A stretch of DNA of 64,000 nt from assembly GCA_964016885.1 (NCBI GenBank), contig OZ024743.1:370140001-370204000 (forward strand). Reading direction: 5' to 3'. The notes below the pieces were generated by a model, which worked only from the letters and a program-made list of their open reading frames with translations, did not search any database and was not told where the DNA came from. Below, in pieces: positions 1 to 48,927 of this stretch. The position numbers were made by a program, and so were the translations under genes. Source of the stretch: Eledone cirrhosa. Lineage: Eukaryota. The number at the start of each line of letters is the position of its first letter. Position 1 is the first letter of the stretch.

Positions 1-1125
1 TTATAACCTCGATCACCTTTGTATCGGCCTCGATGTCGGCGAGGATGGCAGCCATCAGCCTGGGAATTTCAATGGCCAGATGAACCTGGGTCACCCTTAC
101 TCTCACGAGACTATATTTTGGGACCAGTGTGAACTCATCATTTTTTTAGGGGAAACATGGAGTGCTCTCTGGCTTCCTGTGGGGTTCCAAAGAACACGTC
201 CACGGTCCCATATCTTTGTCCATGTCTGATGTGGGTTATTTAAGTCCACACATGTCGGCAAAGCTTTTTGGATCTGCGACTCGGGTGCCCACTCCACTTG
301 GCGTGTTTTTATATTAATCGTGCGGTATGATACATAACATAGCTCGTGATGCTGCATGGTATTTGATGGGGGCGCGGTGAGACTGAACCTGTAACCCTGG
401 CCTCATTCAGTTCTTCCTAGCTTACCTCAATGGTTTCGTTCTTGTTCGCCGATTTAGCAAAAGTCACATTTGGTTTTGCGCTGGTCTTTGTGTTGTTGTT
501 GTTATTCTTATTCTTGGTGTTGCTGCTGTTGCTGTTATTGTTACTTTATTATTATTATTTTTTGTTTAGTTGTTGCTGTGGTTGTGGTGGTGTCAGTGGC
601 GTTCGACTTGAGTGTCGTCATTGTGGGAGAATCCATTTTGATATCACGAGATAATTTTTTTGTTTCAGTTGTTTCACTTGTTGCTGTGGTGGTGGTGGTG
701 GTGGTATCAGTGGTGTTAGATGTACTCTTCCACATTGTGGTGGTGGAGATGGCAGCTTAAACACCTGTAGACATTGGCAAGGCGGGAAGTCTACGTCTGG
801 ACGTGTTAAACTTTGACGACATCTATTGCTGCTGACGCTGTTAGCGAAAACGTTATTGGTTTTATCAATTGTAACAAGGTTCACGATGGTGGTGCTGGGA
901 GTAGTGTTTATGGTAAAGCCGCTGTCACGTGACAGCTGGCTTGATTTGTGGAGGCGTATACCATCATGTTGTTTTTTAATTCTTTGTTTGGCAAAATAAG
1001 TTTTAAATTTTGGGCTCAAGGCCCCAATATTATTGAGTGTCCTTTTCAGAAAGCAATATATATGAACTTATAAACAGTTGACAACAATGAGCTCACGATG
1101 AAACGTTTTCCTACGCAAGTCTCCG
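1..1125 (-). mobile_element. 5' portion (5' UTR and frameshifted ORF1) of an L1/Tx1-like LINE that continues past the window start
   Basis: ORF 103-357 (CYVSYRTINIKTRQVEWAPESQIQKAL) is homologous to ORF1 of the 1167-7074 element (CTVSYRTINVKSRRVERASESQIQKAL). 5' UTR motifs are shared (1012-1050 vs 6911-6950). The 5' end abuts (AAT)n at 1126. Confidence 0.85.

Positions 1126-1166
<41 letters not shown>
1126..1166 (+). repeat. (AAT)n microsatellite joining two Tx1-like LINEs
   Basis: Perfect AAT run read directly. Confidence 0.97.
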
Positions 1167-1167
<1 letters not shown>

Positions 1168-1409
1168 TTTTCTTTATTAACCACAAGGGTTCACATAAAG
1201 TAGACATTAAGGACAGTACAGGACAATACAGGACGGTACAAATGGGCATTTCTGCGTGTAAAAAAACAGAAGTTGAAATAAAATAACAAAGAAAAATTCC
1301 CCAATAGGGGGGAGACTTCCAAGGGACATTTGTGGAGAAAGCCCATTAAAAGACCACAGTGGCCCTGACCACCAGGGCAAGTGCCCTCTCCCAGTTTTCC
1401 ACCTTTAAT

Positions 1410-4400
1410 TTACAGACACATACTCAGAGAAGGCCCATTCATTCGGGCCATACTTGCTTCTCTCACCCATCTTTCAACAAAATGCTGGGAGGAGAGCACT
1501 TCCCTCTCTACCCTGATTTTCCTTTTCAGATGAAATTTGAAAAAGTTAATCAGGGCATCACCTAAGAGGTAAGTGCTCGTCTTCAGCCCTTTCAAACGTG
1601 TCCACCATACTATCTCTTTCGCCATGGCCACCAGACAGATAAAAACTGCCTGCCCTTCCCGGCTAAAGGAAGAGGGCGGGGCAATCCTCACGATGGACTC
1701 AGCTGATAGCCGGATCCGTCCTACACGTGACAGCAGGTGTTCGACATAAACCCACAAGTCAGCAATGCTCGGACACTGGACGAGTGCGTGCAGGACGGTT
1801 TCGTCGCCCTGTGCGCATCTCGGACATGCCCGGCTGACGGCACCTCCATGCCTGTAAAGTTTATCCCTAACTGGCAAAGCACCCCGGTAGCACTGCCAGG
1901 CCAGGGATTTCTGGAAGTTGTCCATAGGCCCCGGCCCGAAAATCCTTCCGAAGAGATTGGCTAGTTGATTTTCGTCGACGCCTAGAGTTTCTCCAAGTAA
2001 TTCGTCGCTCTTCCCCTCCACTAATCCCCTATAGAACGCCAAGGTGGAGTTTCCACCGTTCACATTGCCCGATTGGTCGAGGGCTGTGAGCGCCTGAAGA
2101 CATTCCAGTCTCCAAGCGCTCCCCCTCGGTCTTCGCTTGACCCAGGACTGCAGCTCCGTCAAGGAGACGAGCTGGGGAAAAACGCGTCTAGCAAACGGCG
2201 ACCACACCTGATCACCGTCGAGGAAGAGGTGGAGATGTCGTAGCCTGAGCGCGTGTCTGCGCATCATCAGCCACGGCATGCCCAGCCCTCCACGTAGCGG
2301 GTGTTGACAGCAGACGGACCGCCTGACCATCGGAGCGCGTCCCTTCCACAAGAAGCGAAAGAGCAAACGCTCCAGCGCAGTCAGGCGGGGCTTAGGACAA
2401 GGTACGACGGTCAGGCGGTAGTAGATGACGGACGCGATGTACGCGTTAGCCACCTCCGCTCGACCTTTCAGGGATAGCTTCCTCTCGGCCCATTTCTGGG
2501 TGAGAGAAGCCACCCTGCTCGTCACCTCGTCCCAGTTTTTGTCCGTCTGGAGGTCTGGACGGAACCAGACCCCTAGCAATTTAACCGGTCCGTCCGTCCA
2601 GCGCCCGACGACGCTGTTGGACGGCATGGACCTGCCTCTCCAGGTGCCGAGCTGCAGGCCCACTGACTTTTCCTGGTTGATCATTGCTCCTGTCACCGCT
2701 TCGTATTCTCTTAGTGTAGTGCCGATCGCCTCGATGTGTTTGGCGTTCGACACCACTACGGTGACATCGTCGGCATATGCTGACACGGATCTTCCGCATC
2801 CTAGTTCGCGCGGGAGCCCCCTCAACGTCTCCAGTTTGTGCAGTAATGGCTCGAGAGTCAATACGTACAATAGGGACGAGAGGGGACGTCCTTGGCGGAC
2901 CGAGCGCATGATGTTGAACGGTTCCGAAAGGTGACCGTTCACTCTCACTACAGAGCAGATGTTGCTGTGCATGGCAGCGATCCAGCCTCTGAAGACGGGC
3001 CCAAAGCCAGCCGCCCTCAGGACTGCCGTTAGGTAGCGATGGTCGACCCTATCGAAGGCTTTCGACTGATCTAAATTGATCAAAGACCCACCCGTGCCAG
3101 GTTCCCTAACTACCCTCTCTACGATGTATCGCATGAGGTAGAGGTTGTCGTGGATGGATCTGTAGGGAATGGCGCATGTCTGTGCCTCTCCCACCAGACC
3201 ACCAACGACAAGCGCCAACCTCTTTGCTAGCACCTTGGCCAAAATCTTGAACTCTGTGTTTAGCAGAGTTATGGGCCTAAAATTATCTATGTTATCCCCC
3301 TTGTTCGGATCCTTTCTCAGCAGCGCCACCGCTCCTCGGCTCACAGAGCTGGGAATTCTCCCGTTCTGTTGCCAGTTGCAGTAGACGTCCGCCAAGAGGC
3401 CTCCGAACAAGTCTGGCATTTGTACGTAAAGTTCATAGGGTAGACCATCCAAACCAGGCGATTTACCCCTTGTGCAACTAGTCATTGCCTCCCGTACTTC
3501 AGCGATTGTTATCGGCTTTTCGCAACACTCCGCCTCAGTGGCCGAAAGCCGCGGCTGTCCGTCGAGGTAGACACTAAAGTCCATCCCTCGATCCGGCCCG
3601 CCACTGCCCCCGAACAGTTGAGCGAAGTGTCGCTGAAAAGCTTCACACATTTGCCCGGGATCGAGTAGCATGCGCCCGTCGTGGTCCACCAAAGACCGGA
3701 TCGTGGCTTTATTGCCCCGACGCGCCTCCGCCACTCGGGCCATTTGAACGGCTTTCGTCCACTCGTGTCTGAGAGCACGCACCCTAGCTCTGACAACGCA
3801 GCCTTCGTGCTTTGCATTGAAGAATTGGTCAAGGGCCAATTTCGCCACAAGTACGTCGGTCGCGATGCCTTTGCAAAGCGCCTCGTCTAATTTTCTAACT
3901 AATTCTCCCTCTGCTCTATTTTTCTCTATTGCTAAAGCCTTACTAAACCTAATGGACTATATTCTAATCGCTCTTTTCAGAGCAAACCACCATTTGTTGT
4001 TGGCGATGGCCCCCGTCAACGCCCGCTTAACTAGTTCGCTAATCCGGTCTCTGTAGGGCTTGCACGCTGGTAAGGACGCGTTTAGCTTCCAGTAGCCGGG
4101 TCCTCGTCTATGAAGCCTATCTAAGTCAAGCACACAGATCACGAATTTGTGGTCCGTGTAGCTGACTATCTTGAATTGTGGGCAGCCTATGCTAGACCTA
4201 TCTATTTCCCTACAAAATACTCTATCTAGATATGATCTGGATGACCCTATGCGATTTGTCCAAGTCCACATTGGCACATTCGGGAAATCCATTCGGTACC
4301 TGTCAGACAGTTCAAAACGTCTGAGCAGGTTGGTGAGACTCTTGCACCCTCCTTCCCTATCCACTAATACCACACAATCCCAGCGTGCATCTAAGATCCC

Positions 4401-4829
4401 GTTCCATTCGCCCACTAACACTAAAGAGCGGGACGTTCCAAGAAAGGTCTCCAGACGCCGCAAGAAATCAGGCCGCCCTGCTCCTGTCGGGGCATAGACG
4501 GCCACTAACCTGAAAGCTTGCCCGTCTCCGCTGGTCACGTCCAGCACCACCAGCTTACCTTCTGGGTCCAGGAAGATGGCCCGTATGGCAATATCCAAAC
4601 CTCTCCGAAAAAGCACAGCAACTCCTCCCCCCGATCCCGGACGTCTGGGAGATTCGTACACATCGTAGCCGCCGAAGATCGGTGCGAAAGCCCGTACTTC
4701 GGAGATTCTGGTCTCGCTGATGGCCACTACATCTATGTTTAGTGACCTGAGGTCGTTGAGCTGGTGGCCCTGCTTCCATGACGACCCCAAGCCACGCGCA
4801 TTTATGCTGCCTATTCTGAGTGAGGTCAT
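1410..4829 (-). pseudogene. ORF2: APE endonuclease, reverse transcriptase and C-terminal zinc finger, with one premature in-frame stop at 3957-3959
   Basis: APE motifs: GSINARGL, AISET, VYAP, YLDR, YTDH. RT motifs: GKSPGLDGLP, NFRPITLLN, LDQSKAFDRV, SVRQG, AYADD. C-terminus CPRC..ETVLHALVQC. ORFs 3957-4829 and 1410-3848 are in the same frame. Confidence 0.92.
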
Positions 4830-4863
4830 GTTGAAATGGAGTGGAAAAGATGGGAAAGACCAC

Positions 4864-6865
4864 TTACCTTACTTCTCGTAGGGGAAGGACGGTTTTTCCA
4901 TCCTTTTCACTGCTTGTGGCCTCCTCAGGAAGGATGTCCTTATAAATCCTCCTGGAGAGTGCTTGTCGGAAGTCTTCGATGTCTTTGGGGAATTTTTGTT
5001 TTAGTGTCATGTACGTTTTCTGTGATGCGAGTGATTTGTATGTGTGGAGATGGTGTGAATTTTTGGGTTGTTGTGTAGTCTTTTTCTGTGATGCTGGTGT
5101 TGTGTTGGATGTAGTGTAATAATTGCTTGTTGTTCAAATGTAATGCTGTGTAGTGTGTATCGTTTTGGTTGTTTTGTTTTGTTTGCGTTTGTTGTGGGTT
5201 TGTTTCTGTTTCGTATTTTGGTGACTTTTGTGGTGTAGGTGATGGTGGTGTTGGGGTTAATGATGGTGATGGTGTTGGTGTTTGGGTTGAGGGGGTTGGT
5301 GATGCTGGTGTGGATGGTGGCATATCTGTCCTAACTTTTTTGTTTGTTAATTTATTTGTTTCACTCTGTATTTTGTTTTTGGAGGGGGAAGGAAGAGAAT
5401 TTTTTCTTTTTTTGTTTCTTTTTTTCTTTTTTCCTGATACCGTTTCCCACTCGTCGTCACAATCTGTCTCCAGTTGTGATAGGCCGGGGAGTGGAAAATC
5501 CTCCACAGGCGTTAGTTTTGGTTGTGGCGCGGTGGATGGTGTAGGCGCTGGTGCTAGTTCTGAAGCGTTGGGTGGTGGTGGTGTTGGTTTTGCTGGTGGT
5601 GGTGGTGTTGGTTTTGCTACTGTTGCTGGGGTTGTTGCTGTTATAGTTGCTTCTGTTGTTGCTGCTACATTTGTTGCTGCCATCTCTGCTACTGGTGGTG
5701 TTGATGGTTGTGTCACTGGGGTGGGTAGGAGAGGTGGCCTCAACCTTTTAGCCTGAGGGCAGAAAGCCCTTAGGTGGGTTCCTTCACCACAAACGACACA
5801 CCTAGGCCTTCTGCCCTCGACAATTACGGTGAGGTGGCTGCCGTCAGTGAGGTCTATTACCTCTGGGATCTCCTCAATGCTTTTTTGGTCCGCTTGTATC
5901 AGGAGCTCCATCCCAGATCCGGACCAGTTCTCCTGCTTTTCTTTTGCTATTGCTATTATTTTTGTGTTGGCTTCGATGCCGGCGAGGACGGCTCTATTAG
6001 CCAGGGAATTTCGATGGCCGGTGGAACGTGGGTCACCCTGATCTTTACGAGTCTCTGGCCACAATAGCTTGGGACGAGTGTGAAGTCGTCACTTCTTAAT
6101 GGGGCCATGGAGTGTTCTCTAGCCTCCTCTGGTGTTTCAAAGAACACGTCCACGGTTCCATACTTCTGCCCACGTCTGATGTGGGTTTTTCTCGCCCACA
6201 CATGTCCCAAAGCTTTTTGGATTTGGGACTCGGATGCCCGTTCCACTCGGCGCGATTTTACATTTATTGTTCGATACGACACGGTGCATTGGCGCCGATG
6301 CTCCATTTTATTAGGTGGGGGGTGGGGCGAGGCTGACCCTGTATCCATCTTTCTTTACCATTTGTTTGGCATTTTCTAAATCCTCCTGAGTTACCGTAAA
6401 TGCTTCGAACTGTTTTGCTACTCTGGCAAAACTCAGGGTGGTTTTTTTAATGTCATTGTTGCTGTTGTTGCTGTTGTTGCTATCGTTATTTTTGTTATTA
6501 TTAATTTTAGTTTCAGTTGTGGTGGTGGTGACGTCAGTCGTCTTTGGTGGGGAAGAGTCCATTTTGCTTGATTTCATTTCGACATCACGAGTTAATTTAT
6601 TTTTTTCTTCTTTTGTTTCTGTTGTCGCGGTGGTGATGGGGGTGGTGGTTGTCGCGGTGGTGGTGGTGGTGGAGGCTTTAACACCTGCAGTCATTGGTAA
6701 TGGCGGGAAATGAATGTCTGCCTGAGACATATTTAAAATATTGCTACTGCTTATATCTTTTTTAGTGTTGGCAAACGTAGTAACATTTACAATGGTGGTG
6801 TCGGTGTGAGGTATTAATTTGTGAGAAAGGCTTTCAGCTGCTTGGTGCAGTGGTGAATTAGCCAT
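4864..6865 (-). pseudogene. ORF1 (gag-like CCHC knuckle, Thr/Pro-rich linkers), frameshifted
   Basis: Pieces 6311-6865, 5956-6348 and 4940-6064. Motif RPRCVVCGEGTHLRAFC (CX2CX4HX4C). Colinear with the continuous ORF 19683-21218. Confidence 0.85.
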
Positions 6866-7074
6866 TTTTTTTCAAAGAAATTTTTTGATAATCATAAACG
6901 TTTAAATTTTGGGCACAAGGCCCCAATCTTTTTGGGTGTCCTTTTCGGAAAACAATGTATGTGCGCTTATATATAGTTAACAATAAAAATTTTCCATAAA
7001 TGGCAATTTTTAACAAACGGAAATAACAAACCTTTGCGGAGCTCACGATGATACGATTTACTACGTAGGTCGCC

Positions 7075-7120
<46 letters not shown>
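7075..7120 (+). repeat. (AAT)n microsatellite between the Tx1 5' end and an R4/Dong 5' junction
   Basis: Perfect AAT run. Confidence 0.97.
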
Positions 7121-8261
7121 TGGGAATAATGGGAATTCTGAGATGGAATGTTGCTGAACAGAAAGAAATGGATAGGAAGACTAGGAAGCTATTGACTATC
7201 TACAACATGTACCACAAGAGGAGTGATGTCGATAGACTCTACCTAAGGAGATCTGAGGGTGGAAGAGGTCTTATCAGCATAGAGGACTGTGTTCAGATGG
7301 AGAAAAACAACCTATACAAATACGTGACCTATAGTAAGGAGCCAATGCTCAGAGCTGTACTGAAGGAGGGGACAGTAGGCCAGGGGATGTCCAGGGAGGA
7401 AATAACATCAAGGAGGAAGAGCAGCCTTAAGGGAAAACCCCTTCATAGTACCTTCTTTGAGAAAACTGAATTTAGAGATCCACAGACATGGAACTGGTTG
7501 AGAAGAGGAGACCTCAAAAAGGCTACAGAAGGAATGCTAATGGCTGCGCAGGAGCAGGCCCTCAAAACGAAGTGGTTGAAGCACCATATCTACATGGAGG
7601 AGGCCAGCCCACTGTGCAGGATCTGTGGAGAGAGAGAGGAGACTGTGGCTCACATTGTGTCCGAGTGTAAACACCTAGCCCAGACCCACTATAAGGGCTG
7701 GAGACACGATGTGATGGGCAGGGTGATCCACTGGCACCTGTGCAAAGTAAACAATCTACCACATTCTGAGAAATGGTATGAGCATAGGCCAGAGGCGGTG
7801 ATGGAGAACAATCAGGTGAAGGTGCTGTGGGATTTTAGGATACAGACGGACAAAAAACTGGAACACAATAGACCTGACCTGGTGGTTGTGGACAAAGAAA
7901 AAAGATCGTGCCTGATTGTGGATGTGGCCTGCCCGTTCGACACGAGAGTGCAAGAGAAGGAGAGGGAGAAAATTAACCGATACCAGGACCTAAAGTGGGA
8001 GGTGAAAAGGATTTGGAACTGCCATGAAGTCAAAGTGATCCCGATTGTCATAGGCGCACTGGGGACTATCTCCAAAAGTTTCCAGGGATGGTTAAAGAAA
8101 ATCGGCCCCTTCACGCTTTTTGGAACGCTTCAAAAGGCATGCTTGCTTGGAACAGCAAGAACCCTTCGATACGTCCTGAATATCTGAGGCTGCAGGTAGT
8201 GGCTTGATATTCAATCCAACGGACTTTCCAGTTAACCAACATCAATGACTGAGATTCAAGG
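7121..8261 (+). mobile_element. 5'-truncated R4/Dong-like LINE (family D1); open ORF 7120-8187 covering thumb, CCHC and RLE
   Basis: Motifs CRICGEREETVAHIVSEC, RHD, RPDLVVVD, IVDVACP, EKINRY (PD-(D/E)xK restriction-like endonuclease). Near-identical to 10397-11527. Followed by an (AAT/AAC)n tail at 8262-8314. Confidence 0.92.
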
Positions 8262-8314
8262 AATAACAATAACACTAATAATAATAATAATAACAATAAT
8301 AATAATAATAATAA

Positions 8315-8690
8315 ACACAACAGCCAGATAACGGCAATTTCACCACCACCACAACCAATCTCAACATAATAATGATAATAATAAATACTATTATTATTGT
8401 CCCAAGTTTTAACAAAATGTTTAACCCCATAGATTCACCGAACGGACATCAGTAACGACAACGCCGCCCATCCATCATTACTACCACTATCCCATCACCG
8501 CCGCCACCACTCCTTCATTGCTACCACCGCTACAACACCACCATCACTACAGTAATACGACCACATCACCACCACCACTGCCATCATTACTACCACTATC
8601 CCATCACCGCCGCCACCACTCCTTCATTGCTACCACCGCTACAACACCATCACTACAGTAATACGATCACATCACCACCACCACTGCCTC
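8315..8690 (+). repeat. Non-coding spacer homologous to 11767-12070, containing a ~109 bp tandem duplication (8472-8580 and 8581-8687)
   Basis: Shared blocks ACAACAGCCAGATAA..GGCAATTTCACCACCAC, TACTATTATTATTGTCYCAAGTTTT and CCATCATT.CTACCACTATCCCATCACCGCCGCCACCACTCCTTCATTGCTACCACC. Confidence 0.8.
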
Positions 8691-8942
8691 GGTATCGACA
8701 TCACCACCACCACTATCTCAGTATCGCTACCGCCGCTATTCTCTCCCATTGCTTCCTGCTAGTTGCTGCCACCACATTATAGAATTCCTACTAAAAAAGA
8801 GGAAGGCATCAAAATATATAGATAGACTCAAAAGAAAAAAGAAAAAACAAACATCAAAACCAAAGCAGCACAGCAACAACAGCAAAAAAAGAGAAAAACA
8901 AACAGAGAAAAACAAAAACAAAAAAACGTAAAGAAAATAAGA

Positions 8943-11453
8943 ATGAAGAGAGAAACAAGCGGACGGACAGAGAAGAGAAGGGAAAAACTAAGTCAGACAT
9001 TCGAACACTACATTACAATGAAACTTATGCTTATTCATTTTTGGGGGTTTTTCTGCCTGTGTGTTTGTTTGTTTATTTGTGTTCGTCTACAGCGTGGTGA
9101 TAATGCCACACAAGAAAGAGGCAACGACTTGATCCCTGGGGCGGAACAAACTAAAACATTCTGGAGAGGAATATGGGAGCAGGATGTTAGACATAATGAC
9201 CAGGCAATGTGGATTGAGACAGTACAGAGGGAGATCGGTGAGCAGGCACACCAACAAACTGATTTGAGTATCACAGTTGAAACTCTTAAGGGGCAGGCCA
9301 AAAAACTAGCCAACTGGAAATCACCAGGCCCAGATGGTGTGCAGGGGTATTGGATTAAAAATTTAACATCCCTCCACCCGAAACTGACAACCATGTTCAA
9401 TGACTGCTTGATGTCAGGTGAGGTACCAGAGTGGTTGACAAAAGGTACCACAGTTCTGATAATGAATGACCGAATCAAGGGTAATGATGTTACCAACTAT
9501 AGACCTATCACATGTCTGTCCGTAATGTGGAAACTGCTGACGAGCATTGTGTCTGAGGAAATCTACCATCACCTCCACACAAACAACTTGTTACCGGACG
9601 AACAGAAAGGATGCCGAAAGAAGTCACGTGGTACAAAGGACCAGTTACTTATTGATAAGATGGTAATGGGGAATTGCAGGAGGAGACACACTGATCTTGC
9701 CATGGGATGGATAGACTACAGAAAGGCATTTGACATGGTGCCTCATTCTTGGATCACCAAAAGCCTGGAGATCTTCAAGGTGGCAGATAACATAAGACAG
9801 TTGCTGGGCAGGAGTATGAGGTCCTGGGAAACAGAGTTGACATCAACTGGAAAATCCTTGGGAAGCGTGAAGATCAAGAGCGGTATCTTCCAGGGAGATA
9901 GCCTGTCCCCTCTGTTGTTTGTCCTTGCCCTGATGCCCCTGACCATTATGCTGCGAAAAGTGAGAGCAGGATACAAGTTGGGAAAGGGAGAAATTACCAT
10001 CAGTCACCTCCTCTTCATGGACGATCTTAAGCTCTTCGGGAAGAGTGAGAAGGAGTTGGATGTGCTTGTTGACACTGTCCGTATTTTCAGCAGTGATATA
10101 TGTATGCAGTTTGGTATTAGTAAGTGTGGAGTCATTGTGATGAGGAGGGGTAGGTTGAGCAGAAGTAACGGAATCCAGATACCAACAGGTGAGATGATAA
10201 AGGAAATTGACTCTGAGGAAGGATACAAGTATTTGGGCGTTCTGGAGGCTGATGGCATAAAGAACAAAAAAATGAAGGAATTGTTAAGAACTGAATACAT
10301 TCGGAGAGTAAGGAGCGTATTGAAGTCACATCTGAACAGCAGAAATGCCATAAGTGCAGTAAATTCCCGAGCTGTGTCTATTATTAGGTACAGTGCGGGA
10401 ATTCTGAGATGGAATGTTGCTGAACAAAAAGAAATGGATAGGAAGACTAGGAAGCTATTGACTATCTACAACATGTTCCACAAGAGGAGTGATGTCGATA
10501 GACTCTACCTAAGGAGATCTGAGGGTGGAAGAGGTCTTATCAGCATAGAGGACTGTGTTCAGATGGAGAAAAACAACCTACACAAATACGTGACTGATAG
10601 TAAGGAGCCAATGCTCAGAACTGTACTGAAGGAGGGGACAATAGGCCAGGGGATGTCCAAGGAGGAAATAACATCAAGGAGAAAGAGCAGCCTTCAGGGA
10701 AAATCCCTTCATAGTACCTTCTTTGAGAAAACTGAATTTAGAGATCCACTGACATGGAACTGGTTGAAAAGAGGAGACCTCAAAAAGGCTACAGAAGGAA
10801 TGATAATGGCTGCGCAGGAGCAGGCCCTCAAAACGAAGTGGTTGAAACACCATATTTACAAGGAGGAGGCTAGCCCACTGTGCAGGATCTGTGGAGAGAG
10901 AGAGGAGACTGTGGCTCACATTGTATCCGAGTGTAAACACCTAGCCCAGATCCCCTATAAGGGCTGGAGACATGATGTGATGGGCAGGGTGATCCACTGG
11001 CACCTGTGCAAAGCAAACAATTTACCACATTCTGAGAAATGGTATGAGCATAAGCCAGAAGCGGTGATGGAGAACGATCAGGTGAAGGTGCTGTGGGATT
11101 TTAGGATACAGACGGACAAGAAACTGGAACACAATAGACCTGACCTGGTGGTTGTGGACAAAGAAAAAAGATCGTGTCTGATTGTGGATGTGGCCTGCCC
11201 ATTCGACACGAGAGTGCAAGAGAAGGAGAGGGAGAAAATTAACCGATACCAGGACTTAAAGTGGGAGGTAAAAAGGATTTGGAACTGCCATGAAGTCAAA
11301 GTGATCCCGATTGTCATAGGCGCACTGGGGACTATCTCCAAAAGTTTCCAGGGATGGTTAAAGAAAATCGGCCCCTCCACGCTTTTTGGAACGCTTCAAA
11401 AGGCATGCTTGCTGGGAACAGCAAGAACCCTTCGATACGTCCTGAATATCTGA
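8943..11453 (+). CDS. Uninterrupted RT-CCHC-RLE reading frame of an R4/Dong-like LINE; the first ~56 codons are flanking DNA
   Basis: Motifs WKSPGPDG, NYRPITCL, WIDYRKAFDMVPH, GIFQGDSLSPLLF, LFMDDLKLF, YKYLG, CCHC and RPD..D..EK. Confidence 0.9.
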   Translation: MKRETSGRTEKRREKLSQTFEHYITMKLMLIHFWGFFCLCVCLFICVRLQRGDNATQERGNDLIPGAEQTKTFWRGIWEQDVRHNDQAMWIETVQREIGEQAHQQTDLSITVETLKGQAKKLANWKSPGPDGVQGYWIKNLTSLHPKLTTMFNDCLMSGEVPEWLTKGTTVLIMNDRIKGNDVTNYRPITCLSVMWKLLTSIVSEEIYHHLHTNNLLPDEQKGCRKKSRGTKDQLLIDKMVMGNCRRRHTDLAMGWIDYRKAFDMVPHSWITKSLEIFKVADNIRQLLGRSMRSWETELTSTGKSLGSVKIKSGIFQGDSLSPLLFVLALMPLTIMLRKVRAGYKLGKGEITISHLLFMDDLKLFGKSEKELDVLVDTVRIFSSDICMQFGISKCGVIVMRRGRLSRSNGIQIPTGEMIKEIDSEEGYKYLGVLEADGIKNKKMKELLRTEYIRRVRSVLKSHLNSRNAISAVNSRAVSIIRYSAGILRWNVAEQKEMDRKTRKLLTIYNMFHKRSDVDRLYLRRSEGGRGLISIEDCVQMEKNNLHKYVTDSKEPMLRTVLKEGTIGQGMSKEEITSRRKSSLQGKSLHSTFFEKTEFRDPLTWNWLKRGDLKKATEGMIMAAQEQALKTKWLKHHIYKEEASPLCRICGEREETVAHIVSECKHLAQIPYKGWRHDVMGRVIHWHLCKANNLPHSEKWYEHKPEAVMENDQVKVLWDFRIQTDKKLEHNRPDLVVVDKEKRSCLIVDVACPFDTRVQEKEREKINRYQDLKWEVKRIWNCHEVKVIPIVIGALGTISKSFQGWLKKIGPSTLFGTLQKACLLGTARTLRYVLNI

Positions 11454-11527
11454 GGCTGCAGGTAGTGGCTTGATATTCATTCCAACGGACTTTCCAGTTA
11501 ACTAACATCAATGACTGAGATTCAAGG
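9112..11527 (+). mobile_element. 5'-truncated R4/Dong-like LINE (family D1) with (AAT)n tail 11528-11600
   Basis: Homology to 22276-24647 begins at about 9112. 3' UTR nearly identical to that of 7121-8261. Confidence 0.92.
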
Positions 11528-11539
11528 AATAATAATAAC

Positions 11540-11600
<61 letters not shown>

Positions 11601-12407: not shown

Positions 12408-12495
12408 GACCAAGAAATACCGGGTGGAGGCCGGCGGGGAATAGCCGTGTCTCTAGGGGAGGACGACTCCTCTAGTCTTGGTTGACACTCGTCCT
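12408..12495 (+). ncRNA. Candidate HDV-like self-cleaving ribozyme at the 5' end of the R4/Dong-like element
   Basis: Nested pairings P1 GACCAAG/CTTGGTT (terminal G-U), P2 AGGACG/CGTCCT, P3 ACT/AGT around CCTCT. P1.1 and J4/2 are non-canonical. Confidence 0.4.

Positions 12496-16355: not shown

Positions 16356-16356
<1 letters not shown>
12408..16356 (+). mobile_element. Probably full-length, frameshifted R4/Dong-like LINE (family D2) with (TAA)n tail 16357-16405
   Basis: ORF pieces 12561-16204 with WSREDNKEVLEAFY, WKSPGKDKI, NYRPITCL, GIFQGDSLSPLLF, FYMDDLKLF, CRVCKKQPETIAHIISMC, RHD and NRPDIIL. Confidence 0.9.
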
Positions 16357-16405
<49 letters not shown>

Positions 16406-16406
<1 letters not shown>

Positions 16407-21832: not shown

Positions 21833-21858
21833 ATAATAATAATAATAATAATAATAAT

Positions 21859-24647
21859 TAAATCATCCCATACCTTGAGGCGAGGAACATTCACAATTGC
21901 AATAATATCTTCAAAGCAACCGCAAATGCGGCGAGGAAATTACTTGGCATAAAAACGAGAGGAAACAAACAAATAAGAAAGATCAGAACCTTGGTGGAAG
22001 AAACGACTGAATGGTCAAATCAAGGAAATTAGAAAAGGCATTGGAAAGCTTGAGTTATACTGAATAGGACATTACAAAATATAGACACTAAAGACAGATT
22101 GAAAATAAAATACAAAACTAGGAGGAAAAAGCTAAATATTATCATAGAGGAACTGAAGCAGCGCATTGTAGCAAAAAGTGCAAAGATTAGGTGGTATGAG
22201 AACAGAGTTAGTCAGTATAGACAGAACCGCATGTTTGACAACAACCAGAAGATGTTGTTTGGACAGCTTGAAGGGAAAGAAAGAAGCAACGACGTGATCC
22301 CTGAGGCGGATCAGTCTAAGACATTCTGGAGAGGAATATGCGAGCAGGATTTTGAACATAATAGTCAGGCAATGTGGATTGAGACAGTTCAAAAGGAGAT
22401 TAGTGAACAAGCACACCAACAACCTGATTTGAGTATCACAGTTGAAACTCTTAAAGGGCATGCCGCAAAACCAACTGGAAATCACCAGGCCCAGATGGTG
22501 TGCAGGGGTATTAGATTCAAAATATAACATCCCTCCACCCGAAACTGACAACCATGTTCAATGACTGTTTGATGACGGGTGAGGTACCAGAGTGGTTGAT
22601 AAAAGGTACCACAGTTCTGGTTATGAAAGACCGAATCAAGGGTTATGATGTTACCAAATATAGGCCTATGACATGGCTGTGCGTAATGTGGAAACTGTTA
22701 ACAAGCATTGTGTCTGAGGAAATCTACCATCACTCCCATATAAACAACTTCTTACCGGATGAACAGAAAGGATGCCGAAAGAAGTCCCGTGGTACAAAAG
22801 ACCAGTTACTTATTGATAAGATGGTAAGGAAGAATTGCAAGAGGAGGCACACTGGTCTTGCCAGGGGATGGATAGATTACAAAAAGGCATTCGATATGGT
22901 ACCTCATTCTTGGATAACCGAAAGCCTAGAGATCTTCAAGGCAGATAACATCACACAGTTGTTGAGCAAGAGTATGAAATCCTGGGAAACAGAGTTAACA
23001 TCGGGTGGAGAATCCTTGGGAGGCGTGAAGATCAAGAAAAGTATCTTCCAGGGAAATAGTTTATCCCCTCTGCTGTTTGTCCTTGCCCTAATACTCCTGT
23101 CCGTTATATTGCGAAAAGTAAGAGCAGGATACAAGTTGGGAAGAGGAGAGCTTACCATCAACCACCTCCTCTTTGGGAAGAGTGAGAAGGAGTTGAATGT
23201 ACGTGTTGACACTGTCCGTATTTTCAGCAATGATATATGTATGGAATTTGGTATTAATAAGTATGGATTCCTAGTGATGAAGAGGGGTAAATTGAGCAGA
23301 ACCAACGGAATCCAGGTACCAACAGGTTAGATGAAAAAGCAAATTGATACTGAGGAGGGATACAAATATTTAGGTGTTCTGGAGGCAGATGACATCAAGA
23401 ACAAAAAAATGAAGGAATTGATAAGGAGAGTAAGGAGCGTATTAAAATCACATCTAAATAGAAGGAGTATCATGAGTGCAGTAAATTCCCGAGCTGTGTC
23501 TATTATTAGGTACAGTGCGGGATTCTGAAATAGAATGTTGCTGAAAAAAAAGAAATAGATAGGAAGACTAGGAAGCTATTGACTATCTACAACATGTTCC
23601 ACAAGAGGAGTGATGTCGATAGACTCTACTTAAAGAGATCTGAAGGTGGAAGTGGTCTTATCAGCATAGAGGACTGTCTTCAGATGGAGAAAAACAACCT
23701 GCACAAATATGTGACTGACAGTAGGGAGCCAATGCCCAAAATTGTACTGAAGGAGAGGACAATAGACCAGGGGATGTCCAAGGAGGAAATAACATCAAGG
23801 AGGAAGAGCAACCTTCATGAAATATCCCTTCATAGCACCTTCTTTAAGAAAACTGAATTTAGAGATCCACAGACATGGAACTGGTTAAAAAGAAGGGACC
23901 TTAAAAAATCTGCAGAAGGAATGCTAATGGCTGCGCAAGAGCAAGCCCTCAGAATGAAGTGGGTGAAACACCATATTGACAAGGAGGAGGTTAGCTCATG
24001 TGTAGGATCTGTGGAGAGAGAGAGGAGACTGTGGCTCACATTGTATCCGAGTGTAAACACCTAGCCCAGACTCACTATAAAGGCTGGAGACATGGTGTCA
24101 TGGACAGGGTGATCCACTGGCATCTATGCAAAGTAAACAATTTACCACATTCTGAGAAGTGGTATGAGGATAAGCCAGTGTCGGTGATAGAAAACGATCA
24201 GGTGAAGGTGCTATGGGATTTTAGGATACAGACGGATAAGAAATTAGAACACAATAGGCCTGACCTGGTGGTTTTGGTCAAAGACAAAAGATCATGCCTG
24301 ATTGTAGATGTACTCTGCCCATTTGACACGAGAGTGCAAGAAAAGGAGAGGGAGAAAATTAACCGATACCAGGATTTAAAATGAGAGCTAAAAAGGATTT
24401 GGAACTGCCATGAAATGAAGTTCGTCCCGATTGTCATAGGCGCACTAGGTACTATCTCAAAGAGTTTCCAAGGATGGCTAAAGAAGATTAGTCCAGCCCC
24501 GATTTTTGGAACATTTCAAAAAGCATGCTTGCTGAGAACAGCAAGAACCCTCTGATATGTCCTGAATATCTGAGGCTGAAGGTAGCGACGTGATATTCAT
24601 TTCAACAAACTTTCCAGTTAAATAACATCAATGACTGAGACTCAAAG
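21859..24647 (+). mobile_element. 5'-truncated, decayed R4/Dong-like LINE (family D1, older copy)
   Basis: ORF pieces 22099-24384 colinear with 8943-11453, with several stops and frameshifts. Same 3' UTR. Degenerate AAT tail 24648-24670. Confidence 0.9.
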
Positions 24648-24670
24648 AACAATAATAAAAATAATATTAT

Positions 24671-24882
24671 GATTTCTTATATAGGCACAAGGCCAACATT
24701 TTGGGGGTGGGGAAAGTCGTTTAAATCGAACCCATTGCGTGACTGGTACTTTATTTTATCGACCCCGTAAGGATGAAAGGCAAAGTTAACCTCGGCGGGA
24801 TTTGAACTCAGAATGGCAAGGGCCGTAACTCTATGCGTCAAAGCATGGCGTCCACCCCTCTATCGATACTGCCAATTCACGG
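24671..24882 (-). mobile_element. tRNA-headed SINE (CORE-type, octopus-like)
   Basis: B box GAGTTCAAATCC (24798-24809, minus), then GCCTTTCATCCTT..GGGGTCGATAAAATAAAGTACCAGT; tail GGCCTTGTGCC..AGAAATCA plus TTA-like repeat. Relatives at 47231, 54760 and 56750. Confidence 0.8.
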
Positions 24883-24895
24883 TAATAATAATAAT

Positions 24896-25647
24896 CGTTT
24901 CTTTATTGGCCACAAGGGCTAACATGAAGAAAACCATTACAGACGGCACAGAACAGTACAGGACGATACAAAGTGGGTTATGGCCGTGTAAACCACCACC
25001 TGTTGTTGACGATCGCACCCGTCAACGCACGCTTAACTAATTCGCTAATCCGGTCTCTGTAAGCTTTTCGCGCCGGGAACGACGCCTTCAGCTTCCAATA
25101 GCCGGGCCCTTGCCTAAGTAGTCTTTCTAAGTCACAGATCACAAATTTGTGGTCCGTGTAATCGACTACTTTAAATTGTGGACAACCTACACTAGCCTTA
25201 TCTGTTTCCCTACAGAATACCCTATCTAAACACGGTCTGGCTGACTCGATGTGATTTGCCCATGTTCACATTGGCACATTTGGATAATCCAGTCTATACC
25301 TGTCAGACAGTTCAAAACGTCTGAGCTGGTTCTTGAGGATTTTACACCCTCCTCTGTCCCACATAATCCCAGCGTGCATTTTAAGATACCATTCCAGTCG
25401 CTTACTAACACTAAAAAGCGGGACGTTCCCAGAGAGGTCTCTAGACGTCTGAAAAGATCTGGCCGTTCTGCCCCTGCTGGGGCCTAGACGGCTACTAGCC
25501 TGAAAGCATTGCCTTCGCTGCCGGCCACGTCCAGCACCACCGACTTACCTTCTGGGTCCAGGAAGATGTCCCGTATGTCGAGATCCAAGCCTCTCCGAAA
25601 AAGCACAGCAACTCCGCCTAACGTTCCTGGACGGCTAGCAGACGTGT
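24896..25647 (-). mobile_element. Internally deleted, 5'-truncated Tx1-like LINE (APE fragment fused to the last ~95 nt of the 3' UTR)
   Basis: 24896-24990 matches the 3' end at 58057-58150. 24990-25647 matches the APE region (GGVAVLFRRGLDLDIRDIFLDPEGK). Short TAA tracts on both sides. Confidence 0.85.
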
Positions 25648-25656
25648 ATAATAATA

Positions 25657-28600
25657 CGTTTCCTTTATTGAGCACAGGGGCCTACATATAAGGGACAATA
25701 CAATAGACAGGGACAGTGGGGTTTACAATAAGTTTAGTCAAAATATATATATAAAACAATAAGAATGGTCAAAAGAATTGCCACAATAAAGATTCCCGAT
25801 TAGGGGGAGAACCACACGGGGGCGACTCAAGTACCCCACCAATCCTGAACCAACCGACGTTCCGAGAGCCCCCAAGCAAAACACTCCTCTTCAAATCAGC
25901 CAGAGTACAGGTGTACTATGATTAGGTCCATTTACACGGGTTATTCTCGCAACATTCATCCACCTTTTAATAAATGCACTTGGAGGAGAACTTACCTCTC
26001 CACCCTCACCTTCCTTTCCAGGTGAAACTTCAAAACCTTGATGAGCAATTGGCTGAAGAGAAAAGTGTCTGCCTTCAGGTTTTCAACCTCATTTGCCACA
26101 CAACCGCTTTCACTGAAAGAGAAACACTTCCTTCCCTTCACAGCTGAAAGAAGGCGGCTTGGCAATCTTCACTATGTACTCGGTTGATAGCCGGATCCGT
26201 CCCACACGCGATAACAGCTGTTCGACATAATTCCACAAGTCAGTAATGCACAGACATTGGATGAGTGTCTGCAGAAAAGTTTCGTCGGTCTGCACGCATC
26301 TCAGGCAGGTGCATCTGAGCACACATCAATGTCTGTAGAGTTTATCTAAAACCGGCAGACCTCCCACCCACCTTGTAGCACTGCCAAACGAGTGATTTCT
26401 GAAAGTTGTACATAGTCCCCCGATTGAATGTCGTCCAGAACAGGCTAGTCAGTTCGATTTTGTTGACACCCAGACCTTATCCAACAGTGCAGTAGCACAA
26501 TCGCACAACCAATTCTCCATAAAATTTCCACTGACCGCATTGCCCGCCTGGTAGAGGGCAGTGATCACCGGGCAACATTCCAGATGCCAGGTGCCCAATC
26601 TAGGTCTCATCTTGACTTAGGTCCTAAGCTCAGTCAAAGAGACGAGTTGAGGAAAGGTGTGTCTCACAAACGGTGACCACACCTATTCACCGTTTAAGAA
26701 AGTCTGAAGATCCCGAAGCGTCAGTGTATGTTTGCGCAATCATCTGCCATGGCATGCCCATCCCTCCGCGTAGAGGGTGCTGGCATCAGATGGTCCGTCT
26801 CACCAATGGAACCAGTTCCTTCCACAAAAAGTTGAAGAGCAGGTATTCCAATATGGTATGGTATGAACGGGGTAAAGGCACAAGGGACGCGATGTACGCG
26901 TTCGCTACCTCCGCCCGCCCATTAAGGGATAGCTTCCTCCCGGTCCATTTCTGAGTGAGAATAGCCTCGTTTCCTTGTCCCACTTTTATCCACCAGATCT
27001 GGTTCGAACCAAATCCCAAGCAACTTCACCGGTCCGTTCGTCCAGCAGCCGACTACATTGTTCAACGGCATGTATTTTCCTCTCCAGGTACCGAGATGCA
27101 AATCCACTGTCTTTTCCAGGTTCAGTTTTGCTCTCGTCAACTTTTCATATTCTCCTAAGAAGGTGCCGACCACCTTGATTCCCGAGGCGTTCGACACTAT
27201 CACAGTGATATCACCCGCATATACCGACACAGCCCTTCCATGTCCTGGTTCGAACGGGGGGTGCCCTGCTCCAGCTTCCACAGTAATGGCTGGAGAATCA
27301 ATACCTACAAAAGACAGGAGAGAGGGTACCATTGACGGACTGATCGCGTGATCTGAAATAGTTCCGAAATGTGGCCATTTGCTTCGACCAACTAGTAGAT
27401 GTCGCTGTACATTGCAGTGATCCAGTTTTGAAGACGGGATCAAAGCCAACTGCCTTCAGGACAGCCTTCAGGTATGGATGGTCGACCCTAATGTAAGCTC
27501 TTTCTGTTGATCTAAATTGATTTAGGTCCAACAAAGCCAGGTTTACACCACACCCTCTCTATGATATATCGCATGAGGTAGAGTTTGTCGTGTATGGACC
27601 TAATCGAGATTGCGCATGTTTGCACCTCCCCTCCAATCTCTTCGCTAACACCTTCGCTAACACCTTCACCAAAATCTTAAACATTGTTTAGAAGAGTTAT
27701 GGGTTTGAAATTGTCTAGCGTATGCCTTTTGTTCTCGTCTTTCCGCATCAGCATTATAACGCACCGGCTCAAAGAACTGGGAATACTACCGTTCTGCTGT
27801 CAGTTGCAGTAGAGCGCTTCGGGGAGATCGGAGAACAAGTCTGGCATATCTACGTAAAGCACGTAGGGAGATCATCCAAACGGGTGACTTGCGCCTTGTG
27901 CAACCAACTAGGGCACCCAGAATCTCGTCTGAAGTTATCGGCCTTTCGCAGCGCTCACCATCGGCTCTCGTGAGATGCGGTAGGCCCTCGAATTAGGGAC
28001 AGAAGTCCACCAACGCCTCTGACTCCCCGCTCATCCCGAACAGTTTAGTGAATTGCTGGCGAAAGGCCTTATACATCTGCCTGGAATCGTTCAGCTCGCG
28101 TTCGTCTCGGTGCATCAAAGACCGAATTGTGGTTTTGTTACCACGCGGGCCCATCGAACAGCTTTCATTCTCTCTTTTTTTAGAGCACCTGCCTTAACTC
28201 TGTCAATCAAATCTTCGTGTTATGCATTGAGAAATGGTCTAATGCCATTCTCACTGCAAGCGCGTCAGTTGTAATGCCACTACTAATAACCACGTCTAAT
28301 TTAGCACCCCCTCCTTTCTATTTTTCTCTAAGCCTACTTCGTTATTAAAACCTATCGACATTACTCAAATCTCTCCTTTGAGAGCCCCACACCCATTTGT
28401 TGTTGACGACCTCCCTTGTCAACTTTTTCTTAACTAAATTGTTGACCTGGTCCCTGCAGACGTCACGTGCCGAGAACGACATGTTCAGTTTCAAACAAAC
28501 AGGTCCTTACCTGAGTGTCTTATCGTGATCGACCACGCAGATCACAAACGTGGGGCCTGAATAGGCGACCGTTTGGATATGTAGGTAACCTATGCCATCC

Positions 28601-31138
28601 TTATTTATAGACCTAATAAAAGACCTATCTATATACGATTAAGATGACACTATGTGGTTGGTCCAGGTCTACACTGACGCATTAGGGAAATCTTGTCGGT
28701 ACCTGTCAGACAGTTGGAACTGGCTTATCAGCATTCCCTGCTCCTATCAGCTACTCCCACACAACCCCAGCGTACGTCTACGATGCCATTCCAGTCGCCT
28801 GCTAAGAGTAAAGAGTGGGACCTTCTCAGAGAGGCTTCCAGAAGCCTAAAGAAAATCCGGGCATCCAGTCCCGGTCGAGGCGTAGACAAGCCACCAGTCT
28901 AAAGGCACCACCTTTGCTATTGCTCACGTCCGGGACCACCAGCTTACCTTCCGGATCCAGGAAGCTCGACCTTACCTCGAGATACAGGCCTTTTCTAATC
29001 AGCACTGGCACCCCACCTCCCATTCTCGGCCGATTAAGAGATGCGAAGGTATGATAGTCGTCAAAAAATTGTGGGGCAGTGCGCGCATGTCGGAAATCCT
29101 GGTCTTGCTGACAGCAGTCACACCCATATCTAGTGACCTGGGTCGTTCAGAAGGTGATCCTGCTTCCAGCACGTCCCTAGGTTACGAATATCCAACATTC
29201 AAACATTCCACTTTTAAGAGGGTCCTGTTGGCCGGTTGAATTGAGAGAGGAAAGGTCTACTTACCTCCCGGGGGCTTGTGGAGGTCAGATGTTTCCACTC
29301 CCGTATTCGGTGGAGTTTCTTTTGAAAACCCCTTAAGCAGTCTGCTTTCTGATCTTATATTCGGGGTTCCCACGTCTCGAGGATGCTGTTCCTAATCCCC
29401 TTGTCGAGTGACATTGTGTTTATTGTAGGTGTAGTGTTTGTGATTTCAGATGTTTGTGTGTTCTTTTGTTCTTGCGTTTGTTTTGGTTGTTTGCGTTTGG
29501 GGGGTTGTGGTGGTGTGGTGGTGTGGTGGAGTTGTTTGTTGTTGTTATGGAGCTGTTTATGTTTGTGTGTTAAGTTTGCATTTTCTGTTGTGGGTTTTGT
29601 GTGATGGGTAGAGTTTTTTGTGTGCCTTCTCTATTGTTTTTTTTTGTTTTTTGTTCTTTTGGCAGTTTTGCCTCGCCTACGCTACTGGATTTGTGTCTGT
29701 GTTTGTATTTGCGTTTGTGTCAATGTGTATATGGGGGATGGAGCTTTCTTTGTCTTTCCTCTGGATCTTCATCGTTGGTAGTGGCGTTTTCGCTAGTGTT
29801 GCTGCTGGTGTTGGTAGTAGTCCCCACTCCGGCGTCGGCAGTATTGGAGGATTTCGACACCTTGCCTTTTTTTAGCTGAGAGCAAAAGGCTCGCGTTGTT
29901 TCTCGGCAGACGAAACAGTGCGGCTCTCTGATCTCAGTCATTATTTGCAGTACCATCCCGTTTTGGAAACGGGCGTAGGCCAGGATTTTATTAGGTCTTC
30001 TGGCCTGCTTTGGAGATACTTCAAATTAACATAGGACCAATTCACCCTGGCTGTTCTTGTTGCTGCTATCGGGACGGCATCTGTCTCCTCCACAATCACG
30101 CATCCCAGGAGCAGCCACAAGTCCCTTCTTGGTGGAATACTTGGAATGGGACTGGAACTGTTCTTTTTCCCACGTGGGTGGGGTACATTATGACCTTGCT
30201 GGTTTTGTAAGGGGTCACCAAGTGTTTCACAGCAGGGGCCTCTGACTTAAACAACACCGAGATGGTACCATAATGTCCACCCCTCGCTATGAACTCGATG
30301 TCACCTCTGATGCATTTCAGCGCAGCTACAATTTCGCCTTGCGGATTGGTGGCAGCTTTGTGTCTGCACTAAAATGCATCTAAATGTTACCATTCTCCTT
30401 TCCAGTGCTTCTGTGTCCTCTGTCGGGATGGTTAAGTTGTCTCATGTTTGCTCTTGTTTAATGCTTCTATACCTGGGCCAACTTTTTGTCCTTTTCACTA
30501 AGTACTATGCTAAAGCTTGGCCTGTTTTTTTGTGTTTTCTTTTTTCTTTTTACTGCAGCAGCGAAAGGTTTATTTTTCTTTGTTCGCTGTGCTGTTGCTG
30601 TGAAATCGTTGTTGTTTTTGTTCTCCTTCGAGTTATTCTTGTTTTTGTTGTGTTGTTGTGGTGCAGTTGGTGTTGTTTTGGTCGCTGTTGCAGCTGGTGT
30701 TGATGTTGTTGCTTTCACTTTTTACCTTTTTGCTGTTGTTTTTAGTGCTGTCTTTTTCTATGTTGTTGTTGGTGGTGTTACTAATATCGTTGTTGGTATT
30801 GTTATTGTCTGTTGTACTGTTAGTAGTTACATTATTCATAATGGGGGTGCTGATGGGGACGGTGCTTTTACTCTCAACATTTAAGTCGTTGTCAAACGAC
30901 AGCAGATAGACTCAACGTTGGAAGGGGACGTGGCTCCACCATGTTTTTTGAAGAAAAGAAATCTAACAAAAAATAATGTTCAAATGTTTGAGCCCAGAGG
31001 CCCAAATATTATGGGGTCGCCTTTACACAGGCTAATTATACAGTTCGTGAAAAATATTCAACAAATTCCACTTTGAAACAATTCAAAATAACCAACTTTC
31101 TGGAGCCGATGTGAACACGTCTATCGCAAACGTGCACC
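25657..31138 (-). mobile_element. Full-length but heavily decayed L1/Tx1-like LINE (family B)
   Basis: Remnants AVSVYAGDITVIVS, RKLSLNGRAEVANAYIAS, FLDPEGKLVV, EPHCFVCRETTRAFC. 3' end AATAAAGGAAACG plus TATTATTAT. Degenerate TAA 31139-31165 at the 5' end. Confidence 0.85.
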
Positions 31139-31635
31139 AAAATAGTAATAACAATAATAATAATATTATGAGTAACACATTACACACATTCTTTTATTTG
31201 GGATGAATTTGTGCAATTTTGCATAATTACATCGCCCGCGATTGGTTTCCGTAAGTGACCAAGAATCAATGTAAAAGTAATATATTTTCCATACGTAACA
31301 GACTCGTGGGAGCCGTTTTAAAATGTATCTTCCCCTAACTCCCCGAAACCACTAAGCCTTCACTACACATATACACAGAAAAATATAATCATTCAAGCAT
31401 ACAGCAGATAATATTACAATCTATAAAACTCACTAAAAAATGAAGTACTCTGATTGGTTGAAAAAAACAAAAAACAATTTATTCAACAATTTATGTAACA
31501 ACAAAATTATATTTGCCCTGTCATTGTTGAGGTAAGTGGTACTTTTTAGAAATAACAACATTCTGTCGTTGCGTCATTTTTTCAATATGTGTTTACTACT
31601 TATATATATTATGTGAAGAAACATATACCTGTAAA

Positions 31636-33139: not shown

Positions 33140-36455
<3,316 letters not shown>

Positions 36456-48925: not shown

Positions 48926-48927
<2 letters not shown>

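Follow-up and report, generated by a model that had tools for sequence, protein, structure and literature searches.

TRAS1 and SART1 are telomeric long interspersed nuclear elements (LINEs) of the R1 clade, and both have an apurinic/apyrimidinic-type endonuclease (APE). In Bombyx mori they enter one simple repeat in opposite directions (PMC7265360; here and below, citations refer to parts of each paper). Dong, described from B. mori, Anopheles, Biomphalaria and Darwinula, has (TAA)n as its target, a preference reported for most insects, molluscs and cnidarians (PMC7998251, PMC3812793). The microsatellite families of the Tx1 clade (Kibi, Koshi and crocodilian elements) use (TC)n, (TTC)n, (TTCC)n or (TTTC)n (PMC4494074). 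Keno, a Tx1 element with an APE, and Utopia, which has a restriction-like endonuclease (RLE), reached the U2 small nuclear RNA (snRNA) genes in parallel (PMC4640811). The crocodilian short interspersed nuclear element (SINE) SINEU is moved by Tx1-Mar, shares its target preference and forms tandem insertions around a duplication (PMC4494074). For Octopus vulgaris, recent activity is listed for Dong-R4 (PMC13282606), and L1-Tx1 and Dong-R4 are among the recently active or anciently expanded octopus LINEs (PMC13282606, PMC8967140); the parts of these two papers covered do not mention the targets of either group. Here we analyze a 64,000-nucleotide stretch of Eledone cirrhosa contig OZ024743.1 (the window), in which Tx1-like LINEs, Dong-like LINEs and a SINE form a 31-kb chain joined at (TAA)n repeats.

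We think it probable, at about 0.78, that Tx1-like LINEs with their partner SINE and Dong-like LINEs both insert into AAT microsatellites throughout this genome in fixed, opposite polarity, that they nick opposite strands, and that chains of elements grow there. The two Dong-like families, D1 and D2, resemble Dong of the R4 clade in their single open reading frame (ORF), reverse transcriptase (RT), C-terminal RLE and sense (TAA)n target. Unlike known Dong, they combine proteins 35–54% alike with a near-identical 5' start, and often have (GAA)n at the 5' junction. The Tx-like family A (TxA) shares with Kibi, Koshi and the crocodilian Tx1 elements an APE, two ORFs and a strict microsatellite target; it differs in its target, which is (TTA)n instead of (TC)n or (TTC)n, and a derived clade uses (TATC)n. 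Whereas TRAS1 and SART1 are both APE-type and telomeric, here one APE clade and one RLE clade share dispersed microsatellites. Keno and Utopia likewise pair an APE clade with an RLE clade on one target, but they have the same 3' flank and orientation in a low-copy gene; here the two clades face opposite ways in a microsatellite, where each has more than 1,000 candidate sites. The SINE shares a target preference with its putative Tx1-like partner as SINEU does, although SINEU has a Mariner transposon as target and an snRNA-derived head, and the sites here are TTA tracts or short ATTAT motifs. Each principle has a precedent; neither the combination nor the pair of Tx targets seems to have been described before. 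In the literature searched we found neither a Tx1 element that targets (TTA)n or (TATC)n nor a case of two clades using (TAA)n from opposite strands; the search did not cover Repbase, Kojima and Fujiwara 2004 or subscription reviews, and an existing entry is quite possible.

Polarity of the repeat at element ends

Genome-wide searches used the 3.0-Gb assembly, in which the window lies on contig C4. The initial annotation had proposed that APE-type and RLE-type LINEs share (TAA)n in opposite orientations, and this held across the genome. In 920 kb picked without looking (the blind sample, which includes a C2 sample consisting of a satellite array without elements), 34 tracts of at least five units were found. 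All 42 adjoining element ends were in the predicted orientation, as were 20 of 20 5' ends. Another 30 tracts, chosen by repeat pattern, gave 27 of 27 ends. Over all sampled DNA, 461 of 462 ends at 340 distinct tracts obeyed the polarity (238 of 238 for 5' ends), so orientation relative to the repeat is not random. The single miss (L309) was a scoring artefact, a D1 copy with a proper TAA tail beside an inverted TTA/TAA tract. A second candidate exception (L330, C1:46,018,000-46,026,400) was also rejected; the chain there changes polarity at an inverted junction that lies within Tx sequence.

Full-length copies have the repeat at their 5' flank, so it is not a tail alone. A search with the TxA 5' end gave 1,990 candidates, of which 40 were scored and the best 30 fetched, and (TTA)n lay directly upstream in all 30 of these best matches. 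Exact TxA 5' ends with the flank left open gave 1,719 matches; TTA repeats preceded the element in 100 of the 100 listed, with all full-length junctions in one register. The 3' flank was (TTA)n in 30 of 30, and both flanks were (TTA)n in 19 of 19 copies with both ends inside the fetched stretch (20 fetched). TTC was seen upstream of Tx copies in isolated cases. For D1, the 3' flank was (TAA)n in 30 of 30 and the 5' side TAA in 16 of 20. Exact D2 5' ends numbered 233, and the 100 listed comprised, by eye, 76 TAA, 18 GAA, 5 other and 1 TTA-like. In those 18, and also at L068, L087, L339 and L344, (GAA)n runs, some of them long, separate the Dong 5' end from the TAA tract. They may come from reiterative synthesis at the GAAGAAG start of the element, or mark a second target.

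Another explanation is that the elements carry the repeat with them, as a 3' tail and as a 5' leader from read-through RNA, and recognize a short ATTAT-like motif, the long tracts being products. The single register of full-length TxA junctions is what a copied leader would give, D1 tails open with an element-specific AAC/AAT run common to the copies, and short ATTAT sites receive the SINE, a tract being absent from 69 of 105 blind copies. Since a carried leader could account for full-length copies, the truncated ones are important. We took a census of these over all sampled DNA, in sets partly enriched for tract neighbours and with 26 Tx and 5 Dong internal joins set aside. The junction of 5'-truncated Dong copies had TAA in 54 of 65 and TTA in none; in 5'-truncated Tx copies it had TTA in 11 of 22 (7 by script and 4 short runs by eye) and TAA in none. 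Separately, 19 of the 30 D1 copies with (TAA)n at the 3' flank are 5'-truncated within 1.5 kb, and their junction was clean TAA in 17, TAA then GAA in one and short TAA in one. Copies that lack a leader are thus still found on repeat of the right polarity. In the window, moreover, the tracts at 7077 and 21834 each lie between two 5' ends, one of them truncated, and because of this position the tract at 7077 is not the tail of either neighbour. We consider a carried repeat improbable; the repeat is an insertion target, not merely a tail.

The SINE had been taken to be tract-specific as well, which the counts do not support. A real TTA tract adjoined just 36 of 105 blind copies with complete 3' ends, and most of the others begin with ATTAT (by eye); the SINE needs just a short motif of this type, not a tract. 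Duplications of at least 8 bp flanked 14 of 27 full-length blind copies, compared with 17% in mismatched pairs. Ten informative duplications were 10–20 bp long (one mismatch allowed); nine begin with ATTAT, seven of the ten after a C. On the other strand this start reads ATAAT/R, a pyrimidine/purine step on the TAA strand. All Tx and SINE copies carry this sequence at their 3' end as well, and a good site is thereby recreated with each insertion; 6 of 14 SINE duplication sites start at an apparent earlier SINE or Tx 3' end (by eye). Over its last 40 nt the SINE matches Tx tails, with shuffle P ≤ 0.016 for four families, but it does not match Dong tails (P ≥ 0.9), and this shared 3' tail suggests that the Tx enzyme mobilizes the SINE. 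An Rfam search on one copy, at locus L064, found no head derived from tRNA, 5S or 7SL RNA.

The window chain and chains elsewhere

The chain was parsed from the ORF listing, Pfam matches, a self-BLAST of the window and a print-out of the junctions. It had been described as about 11 elements lying end to end. The end-to-end arrangement stands; the ORFs, Pfam and self-comparison give ten elements in 1–31,165, namely five APE-type LINEs or fragments and one SINE, all on the minus strand, and four RLE-type LINEs, all on the plus strand, as the initial annotation had them. TAA tracts do mark the junctions, seven as clear runs and three (24649, 25649 and 31141) short or decayed, with pure TAA starting at 1127, 7077, 8276/8297, 11542, 16357, 21834 and 24883. 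Polarity was held at every junction.

At the left edge lies TxB (1–1126, minus), the 5' part (5' untranslated region, UTR, and decayed ORF1) of an old APE-type LINE with about 3.4 kb more upstream of the window. A (TAA)13 tract (1127–1166, plus) separates its 5' end from the 3' end of TxA1 (1167–7076, minus), a full-length APE-type, Tx1-like LINE 98.6% identical to its nearest sampled copy. The (TAA)14 tract at 7077–7120 (plus) lies between the 5' ends of TxA1 and D1a (7131–8261, plus), a 5'-truncated RLE-type, R4/Dong-like LINE 99.4% identical to its nearest sampled copy. After an AAC/TAA tail and tract (8262–8314, plus) comes D1b (8315–11527, plus), a Dong-like LINE with RT, CCHC motif and PD..D..K nuclease; the first part of its 5' UTR is missing, as is about 1.15 kb near 9112. 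A (TAA)24 tract (11528–11600, plus) leads to the D2 copy (11601–16356, plus), which belongs to the second Dong-like family and is frameshifted and slightly 5'-truncated. Its tail-to-tail junction with TxA2 is a (TAA)16 tract (16357–16405, plus). TxA2 (16406–21833, minus), the second family A copy, has an internal deletion and a small duplication near 18880. A (TAA)8 tract (21834–21858, plus) separates its 5' end from that of D1c (21859–24648, plus), an older, 5'-truncated D1-type copy 87% identical to D1b. The remainder consists of a decayed TAA tract (24649–24669, plus), the SINE (24670–24882, minus) with its Tx-like tail, a (TAA)4 tract (24883–24895, plus), an old Tx fragment in which an endonuclease part is joined to a 3' end (24896–25648, minus), a short TAA remnant (25649–25657, plus), TxC (25658–31140, minus), which is full-length, APE-type and heavily decayed, and a decayed TAA tract at the right end (31141–31165, plus).

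We rejected 8315–9110 and 11601–12133 as separate elements; they are 5' regions of Dong copies. The former is present in 19 other D1 copies, continuing where D1b lost its 1.15 kb, and the true 5' start of both Dong families is further upstream than in the D1b and D2 copies of the window. The first member of the chain, about 4.5 kb upstream of the window, is an older D1-like copy (plus), followed by the remainder of TxB. The claim that the sense-tail rule extends beyond the chain was also borne out. A lone D2 3' fragment (39451–39853, minus) has a sense (TAA)n tail, TTA on the plus strand. A TAA tract and TxD (58038–64000, minus, TxD itself at 58058, TAA on plus) open a second chain, made up of TxD, a SINE, a TxA and an older Tx. 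It begins at 58038 and ends about 7 kb beyond the window.

The best identities of the ten chain members to another sampled copy, all lower bounds, are 99.4, 98.6, 97.8, 97.8, 97.3, 91.6, 89.7, 84.4, 82.0 (TxB) and 80.1% (TxC). They span 80–99% and the families differ, so the chain accumulated over a long period and did not arise by duplication of one block, which agrees with the repeated use first proposed. Misassembly joining repeats through the microsatellites could mimic such a chain, and no contig or read spans the junctions. However, the window contains no N, all ten copies are distinct, polarity is kept throughout, and junctions without long tracts (24649, 25649) also join members. Equivalent chains occur in blind samples, and a local error would leave the genome-wide rule standing. 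We regard misassembly as highly improbable. TxA 5' and D1 3' sequence was found at ≥90% identity in runs X4 and X5 (organisms B and C) and X22 (an independent study of organism A).

The window chain is a long example of a common arrangement. The order D2-TAA-TxA-TAA-D1 was present in one of 12 blind stretches of 10 kb, and several mixed chains, up to about 12 kb long, were seen in the blind samples of C1 and C3. We therefore rejected the idea of a special landing pad at this locus, as blind 10-kb and 200-kb samples hold the same architecture in similar, shorter chains. TxA copies are clustered beyond random expectation. For the first 100 TxA 5' ends on C1, 14 of 99 gaps were ≤20 kb against 2.7 expected when density was kept in 5-Mb bins, and none of 20,000 shuffles reached the observed value. 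The strand was the same in 12 of the 14 close pairs (P = 0.006) and in 53 of 83 distant pairs. Tract neighbours were Dong-Dong 49, Dong-Tx 24, Tx-Dong 31 and Tx-Tx 17 (odds ratio 1.12, P = 0.85); like-with-like and unlike-with-unlike assortment were both rejected, and a partition of the strands in an interactive sense is not supported, neighbours being drawn at random as to clade.

These data bear on a reading in which targeting is real and the chains are passive, arising without feedback through local duplication and through tolerance of insertions in gene-poor regions of low recombination on the largest chromosomes. LINEs are dense in the blind C1 and C3 samples and nearly absent from those of C8 and C15, which are rich in SINEs. 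The sides of a tract are occupied about independently (6, 14 and 14 tracts with zero, one and two sides occupied), and an array of seven tandem D2 copies with even 4.9-kb spacing (C2:353,611,000-353,642,000) resembles tandem duplication. On the other hand, the excess of close TxA pairs survives the 5-Mb-bin null and most of these pairs share a strand, neighbours in the window chain differ in family and age (80–99%) as no duplicated block would, and the SINE sites at apparent earlier 3' ends count against it as well. We regard passive chains as rather unlikely. Self-renewal of the target would explain the clustering on our preferred reading, that of targeted insertion with chain growth. LINE matches overall are concentrated on the four largest contigs, C1–C4, plus C28.

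The two lineages and a second repeat

An upstream ORF1 with a CCHC zinc knuckle is a feature of the Tx1 clade. In TxA1, an ORF1 with such a knuckle is present in pieces; the motif CX2CX4HX4C occurs in the ORFs at 4940–6088 in TxA1 and at 19683–21254 in TxA2, and ORF1 matched no Pfam family. ORF2 of the lineage has an N-terminal AP endonuclease, an RT and a C-terminal zinc finger (Pfam Exo_endo_phos, RVT_1 and zf-RVT). In TxA1 it is split by one in-frame stop into the APE (3957–4868) and the RT with zf-RVT (1410–3956). The closest solved relatives of the APE are L1 endonucleases, whose catalytic motifs are kept in most TxA copies; TxA1 itself has GEWN instead of GDWN and a stop ahead of the RT. 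The nearest named homologue of the RT is from Argonauta hians (68% identity, hypothetical proteins), a relationship consistent with an octopod host, and the Atlas label for the APE-type protein is a generic LINE-1 ORF2 family. Homologues of neither LINE kind carry usable names, and we rejected naming the clades by homology. The APE-type lineage likely belongs to the Tx1 clade, a name taken from architecture and target and not from a tree with named references. A chimeric subfamily (L311, L322, L326) has the TxA ORF2 half after a different 5' half (TxD-like in L311), with a common break point.

The Dong-like lineage has a single ORF with RT, CCHC motif and C-terminal PD..D..K endonuclease, and no APE. 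The ORF aligns with R2 structures across the RT and the PD..D..K stretch, the nearest solved proteins being R2. D1 copies and 24 homologues share a conserved N-terminal block that has no C2H2 fingers, and a Pfam search (E up to 1) found no Myb match in it. The R4/Dong clade has a divergent N-terminal Myb/SANT-like domain without zinc fingers (PMC7998251). Bombyx Dong carries a 5' ribozyme like that of hepatitis delta virus (PMC3774820); none was found here, either by Rfam at four loci or at the D2 5' end by a simple home-made descriptor that had no positive control. The RLE lineage likely belongs to the R4/Dong clade, again named from architecture and target and not from a tree with named references. 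D1 and D2 differ by segment in their protein identity (35–54%), and database Dong-like proteins P0121-P0124 are nearer to D1 (66–68% identity) than D2 is. The near-identical 5' start and similar 5' UTR of D1 and D2 (L335-L349, L063-L088; window 8315–8690 and 11601–12133) suggest 5' UTR exchange between the two. The Dong 5' UTR has its own short TAA/TTA inverted repeat (window 11815–11845 and 8370–8400; that of D2 near 11817), and at L064 a SINE is inserted in this repeat with a 14-bp duplication.

In sister Tx families that are about 70% alike at the DNA level, the terminal repeat is (TATC)n. At their 5' flanks, (TATC)n was seen as a long run before one 5' end and as a neighbour's tail before two; of two truncated copies, one has (TATC)n at the 5' flank and one does not. 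These families form their own head-to-tail chain (C1:100,160,000-100,183,000, L197-L199) and occur also in the C3 and C15 blind samples. An RT tree built from 11 copies in this genome and 11 database relatives places the four TATC copies in a single clade (support 100) that is nested within the TTA families (support 96 with family C). This nesting makes TTA the likely ancestral target here, and the Tx target likely switched from TTA to TATC. The APE hairpin loop reads H/R-S-G-Q-S in TATC families (2 copies) and R/H/F-I-G-S/L-S in TTA families, so that two residues differ. This loop sways the target choice of the L1 endonuclease, although it is not simply modular (PMC1950540). The TTA/TATC sisters would be a natural pair for reading APE specificity, and the role of the loop is directly testable.

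The window has further features. A strong inverted repeat resembling a miniature inverted-repeat transposable element lies at 31640–31740, just beyond the right end of the chain, and a similar hairpin is found at L004:1126-1215. Related decayed ORFs at 34089–34730, 36586–37473, 40996–42065 and 43888–44546 have a weak Pfam RVT_1 match; from motifs, we take them to resemble Penelope-type GIY-YIG and RT pieces. A decayed RT-like fragment of another LINE type is at 50979–52781 (minus). The pure tracts (TAC)30 (48926–49016), (GAA)25 (55106–55181) and (ACT)8 (56666–56690) have no scored neighbour element.

Proposed mechanism and implications

In target-primed reverse transcription, the strand opposite the sense flank is nicked. 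Given the sense flanks here, the Tx APE would nick the TAA strand and the Dong RLE the TTA strand, each nick priming reverse transcription. Every insertion would split and partly duplicate the tract, leaving fresh target, and chains would grow. SINE duplications that start with ATTAT fit an APE nick on the TAA strand and lend it indirect support; pairing between RNA and target could blur the exact nick base. The pyrimidine/purine step there resembles the T/A nick of the L1 endonuclease (PMC1950540) and that of TRAS1, which nicks between T and A (PMC7265360). The opposite polarity would most simply be a by-product of each clade's own habit, since known Tx1 microsatellite users carry a pyrimidine-rich sense unit and known Dong carries TAA.

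Several observations weigh against this reading. We infer target duplication by the LINEs, and growth by feedback; yet in all five scorable TxA copies (five more were unscorable) a variant in the flank, 8–14 nt from the 5' end, had no counterpart at the 3' end. Later mutation can explain this result, which nonetheless gives no support for duplication. The clustering could stem from regional rate differences. Most of the sampled DNA was fetched at element ends, which enriches the neighbour counts, and only the 920-kb polarity and SINE duplication sets are blind. Both families were recovered in contigs and short reads from four runs, but none of these sequences bridges the chain junctions. Both ORFs were unbroken in none of 20 fetched TxA copies. 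Finally, half of the 22 truncated Tx copies have no TTA at the 5' junction; these 11 comprise three direct joins to Dong, two chimeras, one TTC and five non-repeat junctions. At L320, L137 and C3 ~200,062,350, Tx and Dong are joined directly head to head, with neither 5' end nor the tract left; such joins could be deletions made during insertion.

The chains might go further and form a self-amplifying, genome-wide retrotransposon community, in which ATT repeats are seeded and duplicated by the Tx1-like enzyme with its very abundant SINE and are reused by both clades, with antisense read-through between clades and insertions that delete the other's 5' end. The three direct joins with both 5' ends lost can be cited for such mutual deletion, but we hold the proposal as a whole to be doubtful. 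If true, the forced head-to-head and tail-to-tail polarity would be a self-built, two-strand source of small RNAs.

On the preferred reading of targeted, opposite-strand insertion, the elements add (TTA)n and (TATC)n to the microsatellite targets of APE-type site-specific LINEs, and they provide a genome-scale case of one repeat used by clades of both endonuclease types, APE and RLE, each from the strand opposite to the other. The shared target would explain part of the hot spots of transposable elements, the long repeat blocks that trouble assembly, and the repetitive flanks of AAT markers.

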